A DNA stretch of 64,000 bases from an uncultured Chthoniobacterales bacterium (lineage in GTDB: Bacteria > Verrucomicrobiota > Verrucomicrobiia > Chthoniobacterales > JAATET01): assembly GCA_964247025.1 (NCBI GenBank), contig CAXTSM010000001.1, positions 92,050-156,049 on the forward strand, given 5' to 3'. The notes beneath the pieces were generated by a model. It saw nothing but the letters and a program-made list of their open reading frames with translations, was not told the origin of the DNA and did not search any database. The stretch's first letter is position 1; each line of letters starts with the position of its first letter. A program made the position numbers and the translations under genes. Below, piece after piece: positions 40,711 to 54,395 of the stretch.

Positions 40711-43700
40711 GTGAGCAAAGATTCTGGTTCGTCGCCCCGGAAATTCGCGATCATCGGCATCGGCTGCCGCATGCCGCCGAATGCGAACTCGCTCGCGGCC
40801 TTCTGGCGATTCCTGCTTCGCGGCGGCAACGCGCTGCGTCCGATCAAAAAAGACCGCTGGGACTGGCGGCAATATTTCGACGCGGACCCGCGTCGCCCCG
40901 GCAAGACCTACGCGCCGAAGGCGGCCTCGCTCGACGCGGACCTCACGCAATTCGACCCGCTCGCCTTCGGCATGTCGCCGCGCGAAGCGGCCTCGCTGGA
41001 CCCGCAGCAGCGCCTGCTCCTCGAGGTGACGTGGGAGGCCTTCGAGGATGCGGGCATTCCGCTCGAAAAAATGGCCGGCTCGGCGACGGGCGTGTTTATC
41101 GGCGGCTTCTGCCTCGACCATCTCGTCTTCTCGATGCAACCCGCGAACCGCCACCTCGCCAACGCCCACACCCCCGGCGGCGTGATGATGACCGTGCTCT
41201 CGAACCGCCTCTCGCACGCGTTCGATCTCCGCGGCCCCAGCCTCACGTTGGACACCGCCTGTTCGTCCTCGCTGGTTTCCCTGCACTACGCCTGCCAGAG
41301 CCTGCGGAACGAAGAATGCGACCAGGCTCTCGCCGGCGGGGTGAACGTGATGAGCCGCCCCGAGTTCCCGATCATGATGAGCAAGGGGCACTTCCTTTCG
41401 CCGCACGGGGAATGCCATGCGTTCGACGAGAGCGCCGCCGGCTACGCGCGCGGCGAGGGCGCGGGGATTTTCCTCCTCAAACGTTACGAGGACGCCGTGG
41501 CGGCCGGGGACGTGATCCACGCGGTCGTGCGCGGCACGGGCGTCAATCAGGACGGCCACACCGACGGAATCTCGCTGCCGAACGGCGACGCGCAGGAAGC
41601 GCTCGTGCGCGAGGTCTATCGGCAGGCGGGCGTCGCGCCCGGCGAGGTCGATTACGTCGAGGCGCACGGCACCGGCACGCAGGCCGGCGATCCGGCGGAA
41701 CTCGGCGCGCTCCACCGGACGTTCGCCCCCGGGCGCGAGCGCAAGCTCCTCGTCGGTTCGGTCAAGACCAACATCGGCCACCTCGAGGCCGCCGCCGGCG
41801 TGGCGGGCATGCTGAAGGCCATCGCCGTGCTCAAGCACCGCGAAGTTCCGAAAAATCTCCACTTCAAGAAGCCGAATCCCCGGATTCCCTTCGCCGACTA
41901 CTGCGTCGAGGTGGCGAAGGAAACGACCAGGCTTCCCCCGGCCGACGAGAAGCCGACGCTCTTCGTCGGCGTGAACTCCTTCGGCTACGGCGGCACGAAC
42001 GCCCATGTCGTGCTCGAGTCCGCCCCGTCGATGGCGGCGCCCGCGGCCGGCGCGCCCGGCGGCGAGCCGCGCCTCGTGCCGTTCTCCGCGCGCGACGAGG
42101 GGGCCCTGCGCGAGCTCGCGGGCAAGTTCGCGTTCCAGCTCGGGCAGGGAGCGTCGGGCACGTTCGAGGATTTCGTCCACGCCGCGGCCTTCCGGCGCAG
42201 CCACCTCGGGGTGCGGGCCGGCGTGGTCGCGGCGGGCAACGAGGAGCTGCGCGAGCGCCTCATCGCGCTCTCGACCGGCGAGCCGCACGCGGGCGTGGTG
42301 ACCGCCGGCCGCGGCGGCCAGGCCGGGCCGCTCGCCTTCGTCTACACGGGCATGGGGCCGCAATGGTGGGGCATGGGGCGGGAACTTTTCCGCGACGAGC
42401 CCATTGCCACCGCCGCCCTCGACGAGATCGACGCGCTCTTTCGGCCGCTCGCCGGCTGGTCGCTGAAGGAGGCGATGCTCGCGCCCGAGGCGGAGTCGCG
42501 CATGGCGCGCACCGAGCTCGCGCAGCCGGCGAACTTCGCGATCCAGGTCGCGCTCACGCGGCTGTGGGAATCCCACGGCATCCGGCCGGCCGCGGTGGTC
42601 GGCCATAGCGTGGGCGAGGTCGGCTCCGCCTACGTCGCCGGGGTTTACACGCTCGAGGAGGCCGTGCGCATCAGCTACCACCGCAGCCACCTGCAGCAGT
42701 CGATGGCGGGGCGGGGCGGGATGCTCGCGGTGGGATTGCCCGAGGCGGACGCGGAGCGCCTGATCGCCGGCCGTCCGGAGGTCTCCGTCGCCGCGGTGAA
42801 CAGCTTCGGCGCGGTCACGCTTTCCGGGGACCTCGCGCCGCTGCAGCGGCTGGCGGCGGAGCTCGAAGCCGGCGGGGTGTTCCACAAATTCCTGCGCGTC
42901 GAGGTGGCCTACCACAGCCCGCAGATGGAGTCGTTGCGGGAAGGAATTCTTGCCGCGCTCGCCGATCTGTCGCCGAAGCCCGCGCGCATCCCGCTCTACT
43001 CCACGGCGCACGGCCGGATGATGCCGGACGAGGCGTGGACCGCGGAGATCTGGTGGCGCAACGTGCGCCAGCCCGTGCGTTTCGCGGCGGCGATGAAGGC
43101 GATGCTCGCGGATGGTTACGCCGCCTTTCTCGAGGTCGGCCCGCACCCCGTGCTGGGCAACTCGATCAAGGAATGCGCGGCGCACCTCGAGCGCAAGGCG
43201 GCGACGTTCGTTTCCCTGCGCCGCGCCGAGCCGGAGCGCGCGCGCATGCGGCTCACGCTGGCAGAGCTGTATTGCGCGGGGGCCGCGATCGACTGGGCCG
43301 CCCTGGCGCCGGCGGCCGGGCGGTTTTTTCCCGGGCCGCCGTATCCCTGGCAGCGGCAGCCCCATTGGCTCGAGTCCGAGCGGTCGCGCATCGAGCGGCT
43401 CGGCCGGCCGGGGCCGGTGTATCTCAATCGCCCGGTGCCCGGCGCGCATCCCGCCTGGGAGGTCGAGGTGAACCGGAATTATTTCCCGTTTCTCTTCGAT
43501 CACGGCGTGCAGAACCAGACCGTCTTCGCGGGCATGGGCTACGTCGAGGCGGCGATCACGCTCTCCGCCACGGTGCACGGAGTGCCCGCCGTCGTGCTCG
43601 AGAACGTCAGCTTCGAGCGCGTGCTGGTGGTGGATTACGCGAAGATCCAGGTGCTCCGGTCGGAGTGCGACGCCGAGGGCGGCCGCTTCGCGATTTCCTG

Positions 43701-53291: not shown

Positions 53292-54395
53292 ATGGTGACG
53301 GAACGTCCTTCGCGTAAGCTTTTGGTGGTCGACGACGAGCCTCTCGTCCGTCAGACGCTGAGCTTTGTCCTGCAGGACGAATACGAAATCGTCGCCGTCG
53401 GCAGCGGCGAGGAAGCGGTGGCCGCCTCGGAGAAGGAGGACTTTCCCGTCGTCATCCTCGACCTTTGCATGCAGGGGCTGTCGGGCATCGAGACGCTCCA
53501 GCGCCTCAAGAAGCTTCGCGAGAGCCAGAACGTCATCGTTCTCACGGCCTACGAGAGCACGGAGACCGCCATCGATGCGCTCAACCTTGGCGCCTTCAAT
53601 TATCTCACGAAGCCGTTCGAGCGCGTCCACCTCAAGCGGGTCGTCGCGCGCGGGTTCGATCTTTACGAGCAAAGCGTGGCGCGGAAGGAGGATCTCCAGC
53701 AACGCCTCATGGGCGTGCACGACACGTTCTTCTCGCTGCTTTGCCACGAGTTCAACACGCCCCTCAACGTCATTCTCGGCTTCTCCGATCTGCTTTCGAC
53801 GACCACGGACGACCCCGAGCACACGGCCTGGGTGAGTCATATCCGCGAGGCTGGCACCCATCTCCATGACATCCTGATGGAAATCGTCGACTACACCGCG
53901 GCATCCCATCTCGCCACGGCCGGCATCGAGAGGCCGTTCGTGCCGCGGGAAATCTTCCGGCCGGCCCTGCTCGGCTACGCCGAGAAAGGCGTGACCGTCG
54001 AGTTCGCGGACGGCGCCGCCGCCCGCGCCCGCTGCCACGGTCCGGCCGAAGCCGTGGCCATGATCGCGAAAAAGCTGGTGCGCATGGCCGCGCAGCGTTC
54101 CCCGCGCGTGCGACTCTCCGTGGAGATCGAGGACCAGGACGGCCCCCACCTCAAGATGGTCGTCGGCGGCACGGGCATCCGCCGCGACGGCCTGAACGGC
54201 CGGGATCTCGAGCAGCTCTTCCAGCCCTACGAAGTCGTCACGCACGACGACTCCGCCTGTGCCATGAGCCTCGGCCTCGAGCTCGCGACCTGCCGGAAGA
54301 TCGCGGATTACGCGCATGCCGTCGTGGAGGGGAAATTCGACGCCCACGGCGAACTGGAGCTGATTTCGCGGATCCCGGTTCATGTCCTGAGCTAG
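53292..54395 (+). CDS. Receiver domain fused to HisKA plus a degenerate ATPase domain
   Basis: 'LLVVDDEPLVRQ', 'VILDLCMQGLSG', 'VLTAY' and 'LTKPF', then H-box 'LCHEFNTPLNVILGF'. The C-terminal domain has no clear G1/G2 boxes. The start is 1 nt after the previous stop. Confidence 0.8.
   Translation: MVTERPSRKLLVVDDEPLVRQTLSFVLQDEYEIVAVGSGEEAVAASEKEDFPVVILDLCMQGLSGIETLQRLKKLRESQNVIVLTAYESTETAIDALNLGAFNYLTKPFERVHLKRVVARGFDLYEQSVARKEDLQQRLMGVHDTFFSLLCHEFNTPLNVILGFSDLLSTTTDDPEHTAWVSHIREAGTHLHDILMEIVDYTAASHLATAGIERPFVPREIFRPALLGYAEKGVTVEFADGAAARARCHGPAEAVAMIAKKLVRMAAQRSPRVRLSVEIEDQDGPHLKMVVGGTGIRRDGLNGRDLEQLFQPYEVVTHDDSACAMSLGLELATCRKIADYAHAVVEGKFDAHGELELISRIPVHVLS

Follow-up and report, generated by a model that had tools for sequence, protein, structure and literature searches.

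Ralstonia PhcB makes the methyl 3-hydroxymyristate and methyl 3-hydroxypalmitate signals of a cell-density signalling cassette, in which the gene of this synthase is followed by those of the sensor kinase PhcS and of the receiver proteins PhcR and PhcQ. A stretch of 64,000 nucleotides from an uncultured Chthoniobacterales bacterium of soil (contig CAXTSM010000001.1, positions 92,050 to 156,049; hereafter the window) carries a block of six genes at positions 40711–54395 that is probably, as judged from sequence comparisons, a verrucomicrobial version of the PhcB–PhcS–PhcR–PhcQ cassette coupled to a polyketide synthase (PKS). Genes 2–5 of the block are assigned by protein alignment as homologues of Phc proteins, including residues of experimental importance in Ralstonia, and the block suggests an undescribed lipid methyl-ester signal in Verrucomicrobiota.

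The literature searched discusses phc signalling only for Ralstonia and Cupriavidus and mentions homologues in Paraburkholderia; it contains nothing on phcB in Verrucomicrobiota or Planctomycetota, nor on a PKS-linked phcB. In agreement with a preliminary description of the window, which knew of no described system of this composition, none was found there. Membership in the PhcB family is itself not new, and automated annotation already labels some homologues PhcB. The PKS-coupled architecture and its conservation over two orders of Verrucomicrobiota are, as far as found, undescribed, and so is the tandem kinase as the majority form of the sensor. The operon of Ralstonia chuxiongensis served as the reference, and its PhcR (368 aa) and PhcQ (335 aa) are near in size to those of the species complex (368–374 aa and 336–337 aa, respectively; PMC8578825).

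Organization of the six-gene block

The open reading frame (ORF) map and the translations place the six genes in a row on the plus strand, as follows.

40711..46941, plus strand: gene 1, single-module, fully reducing type I PKS of 2076 aa with the Pfam domain order ketosynthase (KS), acyltransferase (AT), dehydratase (DH), enoyl reductase (ER), ketoreductase (KR) and acyl carrier protein (ACP)
46963..48360, plus strand: gene 2, PhcB-family S-adenosylmethionine (SAM)-dependent methyltransferase of 465 aa, the presumed signal synthase
48357..50963, plus strand: gene 3, PhcS-related tandem-kinase hybrid sensor of 868 aa
50957..52063, plus strand: gene 4, PhcQ-like response regulator of 368 aa
52088..53290, plus strand: gene 5, PhcR-like response regulator of 400 aa, or of 394 aa from 52106
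53292..54395, plus strand: gene 6, third receiver protein (REC-HisKA) of 367 aa from its ATG, the ORF being open from 53241

The junctions are, in order, 21 nt, −4 nt (ATGA), −7 nt, 42 nt and 1 nt. The second and third genes overlap through the ATG at 48357 and the stop codon ending at 48360, and the gap of 42 nt before the second receiver gene is counted from the start at 52106 and shrinks to 24 nt with the GTG at 52088 as start. These coordinates and translations reproduce the six same-strand genes and the junctions of the preliminary description, and Pfam confirms the domain contents listed there, including one receiver protein with an unknown output and two with kinase-like outputs.

PhcB-family methyltransferase

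The gene 2 product is 44.4% identical to R. chuxiongensis PhcB over 462 aa (BLASTP, E = 1e-133), and identity to that protein is about 45% in the N-terminal as well as in the C-terminal half. Pfam detects a class I SAM domain at residues 290–403 and no family match for residues 1–280. The likeness to PhcB first noticed in the window is therefore borne out by BLASTP, and a grouping with tailoring enzymes is not seen; an ordinary tailoring methyltransferase is rejected because the match to PhcB runs from end to end and includes the family-specific N-terminal 280 residues. A search with the N-terminal 285 aa alone returns 844 clusters at 50% identity, and since these are mostly proteins of 460–480 aa, the family is a compact one with a fixed architecture.

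Thousands of relatives of the methyltransferase are present among 5.8 billion proteins, the closest of them in Chthoniobacterales/Terrimicrobiaceae and Opitutales metagenome-assembled genomes (MAGs), and many close homologues are named by JGI with the KEGG phcB description. A family-alignment scan of GTDB species genomes finds at least 575 relatives, the best 80 of which form the comparative sample used below, with the window and Ralstonia proteins mapped onto all 80 loci. Ralstonia and many Cupriavidus are among these best 80, with 43–44% identity over residues 8–458/465 (E of about 1e-120 to 1e-133). A full-length homologue encoded on a Paraburkholderia graminis plasmid is 44% identical, and its gene is followed by those of a kinase of 445 aa and of two receivers, an arrangement like that of a phcBSRQ operon.

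The PhcB family has 110 invariant columns in alignment A1, which spans PKS-linked and PKS-free members, and no obvious change of the substrate pocket between these members is detected. Arg-23 of the methyltransferase aligns with Arg-22 of PhcB, and the substitution R22C is known as an adaptive mutation in Ralstonia (PMC6989110). The AlphaFold model of the whole protein (pLDDT 82) is predicted to consist of a beta-barrel (residues 10–86), a helical region (residues 100–283) and a Rossmann methyltransferase domain (residues 288–462).

When modelled alone (pLDDT 84), the barrel (window positions 46990–47220) most resembles PilZ domains (MrkH, BcsA, PP4397, VCA0042 and YcgR). The TM-scores are 0.56–0.66, with E-values of just 4e-3 to 0.1, and the cyclic di-GMP (c-di-GMP)-binding motifs RxxxR and D/NxSxxG are not seen in the barrel sequence. 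The Ralstonia PhcB R22C substitution falls within this barrel.

Polyketide synthase and its linkage to the cassette

An orthologous PKS gene lies directly upstream of the PhcB homologue, on the same strand, in 13 of the 13 Chthoniobacterales and Opitutales genome loci and likewise in two metagenome places, one of which is a Tara Oceans contig. The PKS orthologues of these loci are 39–63% identical to the window PKS, and the gap between the PKS and methyltransferase genes, 21 nt in the window, is 26–172 nt in the relatives. The 65 loci from other phyla (Planctomycetota, Delta-, Gamma- and Betaproteobacteria) all lack the orthologous PKS, so that within the sample the PKS coupling is specific to Verrucomicrobiota. 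The linkage was also followed in reverse, from the PKS. Six PKS orthologues were looked up, one of which is uninformative because its contig ends 423 nt past the PKS; the other five all have a PhcB homologue (52–68% identity), a long kinase and receivers directly downstream. Searches from either end, with the methyltransferase or with the PKS as starting point, agree that PKS and signalling genes are conserved together in Chthoniobacterales and Opitutales; the lack of co-conservation that the first reading of the window named as refuting is not seen. The named single-module orthologues of the PKS (about 2,050–2,140 aa, at least 41% identity) are all from Verrucomicrobiota, and multimodular myxobacterial and actinomycete PKSs stand lower down the match list. 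Three of the five informative loci are from cultured carriers of the block, namely Terrimicrobium sacchariphilum (GCA_001613545.1), Coraliomargarita algicola (CP138858.1) and Puniceicoccus vermicola.

The identities of the PKS and of the methyltransferase to their window counterparts co-vary over the 13 loci (r = 0.94). Since the block recurs, these identities co-vary and the flanks are not conserved, the six genes behave as one inherited unit, and since the arrangement recurs as a block in many genomes, it is far beyond chance. Two further verrucomicrobial loci deviate: one (L031) has no PKS, and the other, in a Pedosphaera MAG (L024), has a PKS of a different type. The latter (13711–20988, minus strand) has the order FAAL-ACP-KS-AT-cMT-KR-ACP and the motif HAFHS, and it lies on the convergent strand after a pair of PhcB and long-kinase genes. 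Because of its different type and convergent strand, it was rejected as independent support for the linkage; its adjacency is either a coincidence or an independent association with a PKS.

Single loci show further features. In L084/L085 (1994–3388), a second, 464-aa methyltransferase-like protein is encoded directly upstream of the PKS; it is likened to PhcB by size only. A gene for an outer-membrane channel of the FadL/Toluene_X family stands divergently beside the PKS in the Tara contig (L082 2195–3421, minus strand) and in Puniceicoccus vermicola (L088 6637–7902, minus strand). Channels of this type carry hydrophobic molecules, and no equivalent is present in the window. One PKS-linked locus (L090) is embedded among genes of the tetrahydromethanopterin pathway (Fae, MCH), which suggests a methylotrophic host.

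The GTG start of the PKS at 40711 is backed by homologue alignments that start at residues 2–12. A motif scan finds the KS motifs DTACSSS, which holds the Cys residue, HGTGT and NIGH, the AT motif GHSVGE, the LDD of a B-type KR and the ACP motif GVDSL, and the catalytic motifs of KS, AT, ER, KR and ACP are intact. As read from the sequence, DH departs from HxxxGxxxxP and retains its His residue and the DxxxQ motif. The AT specificity motif is an unusual VAYHS; in the form EVAYHS it is invariant in 19 PKS orthologues and differs from the malonyl (HAFH) as well as from the methylmalonyl (YASH) consensus. The nearest solved structure in the PDB is mycocerosic acid synthase (Mas; E = 1.8e-288). 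NCBIfam Pks2 aligns over the full length with 1131 bits, below its cut-off of 2400, and the NCBIfam PKS_plus_SDR match is under its cut-off as well. Neither Pfam nor the motif scan finds a thioesterase or other release domain: the ACP serine is 46 residues from the C-terminus, and all orthologues have a similarly short tail, ending about 45 residues past this serine. No loading domain or acyl-activating gene is present in the block, as judged from Pfam and from flank comparison.

Tandem-kinase sensor

Pfam gives the gene 3 product the order polytopic N-terminus, HisKA/HATPase, receiver (REC) and second HisKA/HATPase. The membrane domain covers residues 1 to about 200, with hydrophobic segments within residues 54–194, and is followed by kinase 1 (His-226), the receiver (Asp-537) and kinase 2 (His-652). 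The membrane domain is 28% identical to that of Ralstonia PhcS (E = 2e-16), and kinase 2 is 39% identical to the PhcS core (E = 7e-54). The motif LLHEINNP is common to PhcS, at His-230, and to kinase 2, at His-652; His-230 of PhcS is required for the response in Ralstonia (PMC11960443, PMC8578825). The Pfam domain MASE8 is sub-threshold in the window sensor (E = 0.013) and on record for its orthologues.

The window sensor has 868 aa as against the 442 aa of PhcS, and the extra kinase and receiver stand between the sensor domain and the PhcS-like core. The long form is present in all sampled Verrucomicrobiota, Planctomycetota, Delta- and Gammaproteobacteria, and the short PhcS is confined to Burkholderiales among the 80 loci. 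The tandem kinase is the majority form of the sensor of this family outside Burkholderiales, and the doubled kinase is not the addition for which the preliminary description took it. The long kinase is collinear with concatenated PhcS and PhcR (25%), but an origin as a PhcS–PhcR fusion is rejected because gammaproteobacterial loci have the long kinase together with separate PhcR-like and PhcQ-like genes and because the PhcS core has its match in kinase 2 and not in kinase 1.

Receiver proteins

In the gene 4 product, a conserved helical linker joins the receiver (Asp-61, DQRMPETSG) to a C-terminal domain without a recognisable output. Its REC is 44% identical to that of PhcQ, and in a family-versus-family profile comparison its residues 3–220 align with PhcQ residues 2–214 (E = 1e-47). 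Arg-155 of gene 4 aligns with Arg-154 of PhcQ, an adaptive-mutation site outside REC (PMC6989110). The gene 5 product has a receiver (Asp-61, DQRMPEANG), behind which stands a degenerate kinase-like domain. This domain has a conserved motif, KIGHYVHNALCP, and lacks the Asn of the N box and the G1 box (DxGxG); NCBIfam gives it partial matches to kinase cores. The gene 5 REC shares 44% identity with that of PhcR and 46% with that of PhcQ, and profile alignment makes the protein collinear with PhcR over its full length (residues 6–378 against 4–368, E = 1e-38). The signature DQRMPE(T/A)(S/N)G is thus present in genes 4 and 5, the two receivers for which the pattern 'DQRMPE.(S/N)G' had been claimed. 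Both receivers score highest in NCBIfam against those of c-di-GMP phosphodiesterase-type regulators (NosR family).

The gene 6 product has a REC, a HisKA/DHp domain with a conserved His residue (LLCHEFNTPLN) and a degenerate ATPase-like domain, and its motifs, like those of gene 5, are conserved across orthologues. By profile comparison its C-terminal domain matches the PhcR kinase domain with a probability of 95% (E = 2e-8). The kinase-like domain of gene 6 fits PhcR better than that of gene 5 does, and the gene 6 REC is more distant. Gene 6 is present in most Chthoniobacterales loci, in Coraliomargarita, in Puniceicoccus and in the Tara contig, and is missing in some Opitutales loci; its domain make-up suggests that it is probably a phosphotransfer or phosphatase component. 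Pfam and NCBIfam detect no DNA-binding domain in genes 4, 5 or 6, and the Ralstonia Phc receivers likewise have none (PMC8578825).

Distribution of the cassette

The order of PhcB homologue, sensor and receivers is kept in the 80 loci, which belong to at least four phyla, and by sequence criteria these are true Phc homologues in each. Burkholderiales have PhcB, the short PhcS, PhcR and PhcQ. Gammaproteobacteria such as Salinisphaera have PhcB, a long tandem kinase, a PhcR-like protein and a PhcQ-like protein. Planctomycetota and two deltaproteobacterial/myxobacterial loci have PhcB, the long kinase and usually one receiver, and Chthoniobacterales and Opitutales have the PKS, PhcB, the long kinase, a Q-like receiver, an R-like receiver and usually a third receiver. 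No lipid-synthesis gene is found upstream of the PhcB homologues in the other phyla, where only heterogeneous regulators and unrelated enzymes stand. In two planctomycete loci (L071 9267–9947; L026 9215–9868) the gene close ahead of the PhcB homologue encodes an HTH_11 regulator, and in one locus (L021 6798–8786) an AI-2E-family transporter is encoded upstream. A further planctomycete locus (L032 8287–9771) has, in tandem with its PhcB homologue, a paralogue that is 31% identical to the window methyltransferase.

Proposed mechanism

The block would work as follows. The PKS would build a dedicated acyl chain on its own ACP; the last cycle may leave a 3-hydroxyl group, and the chain may be branched. 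From this chain the PhcB homologue, alone or together with a separate hydrolytic step, would make a hydrophobic methyl ester, which would leave the cell and, at a threshold concentration, be sensed in the membrane by the MASE8-like sensor domain. Phosphate would then pass from kinase 1 to the internal receiver, to kinase 2 and to the DQRMP-type receivers, with the REC-DHp protein of gene 6 as a putative phosphotransfer or phosphatase branch. The output would be produced by protein–protein interaction, as with PhcQ and PhcA, the LysR regulator through which the density-dependent response of Ralstonia runs, and not by direct DNA binding. With the PKS and the synthase heading the operon, positive autoregulation would be permitted.

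The block contains no thioesterase or acyltransferase and the PKS ends shortly after its ACP, so that the PhcB homologue is the only other enzyme of the block. Since such a PKS makes fatty-acyl chains, its product would fit the known substrates of PhcB, the chemistry of which uses fatty-acyl chains (PMC8578825, PMC6989110). There is a tentative case, though a somewhat doubtful one, for the PhcB-family protein as the dedicated off-loading partner of the thioesterase-less PKS, releasing the ACP-bound chain as a methyl ester. Either the PhcB N-terminal region would have an unrecognised release activity, or an unlinked enzyme would contribute. The step from a PKS-derived chain to a diffusible methyl-ester signal, as the preliminary description proposed it, is still a matter of inference.

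Several observations weigh against a PKS-coupled phc cassette. PhcB homologues in Planctomycetota and Proteobacteria have no adjacent PKS, and since PKS-free cassettes exist, the PhcB enzyme does not need a PKS. For O-methylation by a SAM-dependent enzyme the carboxylate has to be free, and a hydrolase to detach the chain from the ACP is not identified; a phosphopantetheinyl transferase is absent from the block. It is not predictable from the sequence which substrate the VAYHS AT uses or how long and how oxidised the PKS product is. The mapping of the signalling genes onto PhcS, PhcR and PhcQ, which had been suggested from the window alone, holds broadly by BLASTP and profiles but is weak or undetected in two parts: the last 150 or so residues of gene 4 have no similarity to the PhcQ C-terminus that profile comparison can detect, and the C-terminal kinase-like domain of gene 5 taken alone matches PhcR weakly (E = 1.5e-3).

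Alternative explanations

The main rival, although an unlikely one, is that the signal of the cassette is an ordinary methyl ester of a 3-hydroxy fatty acid, derived as in Ralstonia from intermediates of fatty-acid synthesis, the PKS being a co-transcribed or regulated output that makes, for example, a high-density lipid or surface molecule. This would agree with the retention of the same sensor and receivers by PhcB homologues outside Verrucomicrobiota that have no adjacent orthologous PKS, and with the strong conservation of the PhcB sequence in PKS-linked and PKS-free members. However, the PKS gene is always immediately 5′ of the synthase gene and not downstream of the regulators, and the association of PKS and cassette is strict in both directions in the sample. 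In addition, the PKS lacks a release domain, and the block offers no other enzyme that could off-load or use its product.

It is quite improbable that the block is instead a lipid-modification and envelope-sensing circuit, in which a membrane or storage lipid is methylated and the kinase monitors the membrane lipids of the producer itself. The wholly membrane-embedded sensor domain and the lack of a DNA-binding output in the receivers would suit such a circuit, and MAS-like PKSs such as mycobacterial Mas and Pks2 classically make cell-envelope lipids. A methyl ester, however, lacks the free carboxyl that is needed to enter complex lipids, and Ralstonia phc, the one characterised member of the family, has a secreted, sub-micromolar PhcB product and requires PhcS His-230 (PMC11960443, PMC8578825). 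Chance adjacency of an ordinary PKS cluster, with its tailoring methyltransferase, to an unrelated two-component system has next to no probability and is effectively refuted. Pfam does see just generic methyltransferase, kinase and receiver domains, and in Pedosphaera a different PKS stands on the opposite strand by the PhcB–sensor pair, perhaps by coincidence; yet the methyltransferase is a full-length PhcB homologue, and one order of the six genes, with differing flanks, recurs from Chthoniobacterales through to marine Opitutales.

Surroundings of the block

The closest genuine gene upstream of the PKS encodes a pseudouridine synthase (39352–40248, plus strand), from which it is separated by an intergenic stretch of 462 nt at 40249–40710. 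An ORF at 39163–40650 (minus strand) was rejected as a divergent neighbour; it is Arg/Pro-rich, has no family match and is probably spurious. A long antisense ORF at 40696–46194 (minus strand) is also Arg/Pro-rich and without family matches and is probably an artefact of the high G+C content, which is about 68–72% in the window; the apparent conservation of antisense ORFs in relatives reflects the PKS on the opposite strand. None of the window ORFs flanking the block is conserved in related loci, where a thioesterase, a phosphopantetheinyl transferase and an acyl ligase were sought. No sigma-70-like promoter was found by a promoter scan, and the terminator-like matches (19, against 12.2 ± 3.3 in shuffled sequence) are located inside genes and are uninformative.

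A tRNA-Pro gene (anticodon TGG; 38058–38133, minus strand), the sole tRNA or Rfam match in the window, lies 2.6 kb upstream of the PKS. Given this tRNA gene and the non-conserved flanks, an insertion history of the block is possible. At 18000–26000 the G+C fraction falls to 0.58–0.64 from about 0.70 elsewhere, and this segment may be foreign or atypical. A large protein with an adenylate/guanylate cyclase domain, a STAND/AAA NTPase and TPR repeats is encoded at 34624–37302 (minus strand) and is not beside the block in other genomes.

Implications

Verrucomicrobiota are an abundant phylum of soil and sea, and no signalling of this kind is described there in the literature searched. The linkage identifies a lineage whose signal synthase is firmly coupled to a putative acyl-chain source of its own. 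This coupling offers a handle on the real substrate of PhcB, which may be ACP-bound or a free acid, and bears on whether Verrucomicrobiota communicate via diffusible or volatile lipid esters. Since the block is present in cultured strains, the hypothesis is directly testable. The comparison also suggests that the textbook Ralstonia arrangement is reduced from a tandem-kinase system. If the PhcB homologue does release the PKS chain as a methyl ester, polyketide or branched fatty-acid methyl-ester autoinducers would be a new chemical class, and Verrucomicrobiota would have their first defined quorum-sensing system. In that case the ancestral receptor of phc signalling would be the tandem-kinase MASE8 sensor, and Ralstonia PhcS, PhcR and PhcQ would be a reduced derivative.

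Comparison with known systems

The block is like the phcBSRQ operon of Ralstonia, which is also present in Cupriavidus and Paraburkholderia, in that a PhcB-family synthase candidate of the same length and domain layout is followed in one operon by the sensor and then by the receivers. The sensors share a homologous polytopic domain and a kinase core in which the equivalent of His-230 is kept, and both systems have DQRMP-type receivers, one with a kinase-like domain and one with an unknown domain. The phc logic recognised in the preliminary description is therefore reproduced as far as the order of synthase, sensor and receivers goes. However, the Q-like receiver precedes the R-like one, the inverse of the four-gene order B-S-R-Q in Ralstonia, and a third, REC-HisKA protein is extra. 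Unlike the Ralstonia operon, the window block also has a dedicated fully reducing PKS directly upstream, an 868-aa tandem kinase in place of the 442-aa PhcS, and an R-like kinase domain that is degenerate, whereas Ralstonia PhcR keeps the H, N and G boxes. The host phylum, Verrucomicrobiota, is different as well.

Mas has no thioesterase, and its release step relies on a partner enzyme such as PapA5. The window PKS shares with the mycobacterial MAS-like PKSs Mas and Pks2, which extend a long-chain fatty-acyl primer iteratively, the order KS-AT-DH-ER-KR-ACP in one polypeptide of about 2100 aa and the lack of a thioesterase. In contrast to these PKSs, its AT motif is VAYHS and not the methylmalonyl-type YASH, and its score (1131 bits) stays below the NCBIfam equivalog cut-off (2400 bits). 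Its candidate partner is the adjacent SAM methyltransferase and not a PapA-type acyltransferase, and its context is signalling and not cell-wall lipid synthesis.

BioC, the malonyl-ACP O-methyltransferase, resembles the gene 2 product as a SAM-dependent carboxyl O-methyltransferase in the context of a fatty-acid synthase, and NCBIfam gives a single weak BioC match (E = 0.0033, 17 bits, cut-off 185 bits). BioC, however, lacks the 280-residue PhcB-specific N-terminal region and methylates the free omega-carboxyl of malonyl-ACP, whereas the only carboxyl of the PKS product would be held in a thioester. In the alpha-hydroxyketone systems CqsA/CqsS of Vibrio and LqsA/LqsS of Legionella and in RpfF/RpfC/RpfG of the diffusible signal factor (DSF) system, a fatty-acyl-derived hydrophobic autoinducer is made by a synthase whose gene lies beside that of a polytopic sensor kinase or hybrid kinase, and the signal passes into a phosphorelay. 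These systems follow the same logic as that proposed for the window block, but their synthases are pyridoxal phosphate-dependent acyltransferases or crotonases, whereas the block combines a SAM methyltransferase with a PKS.

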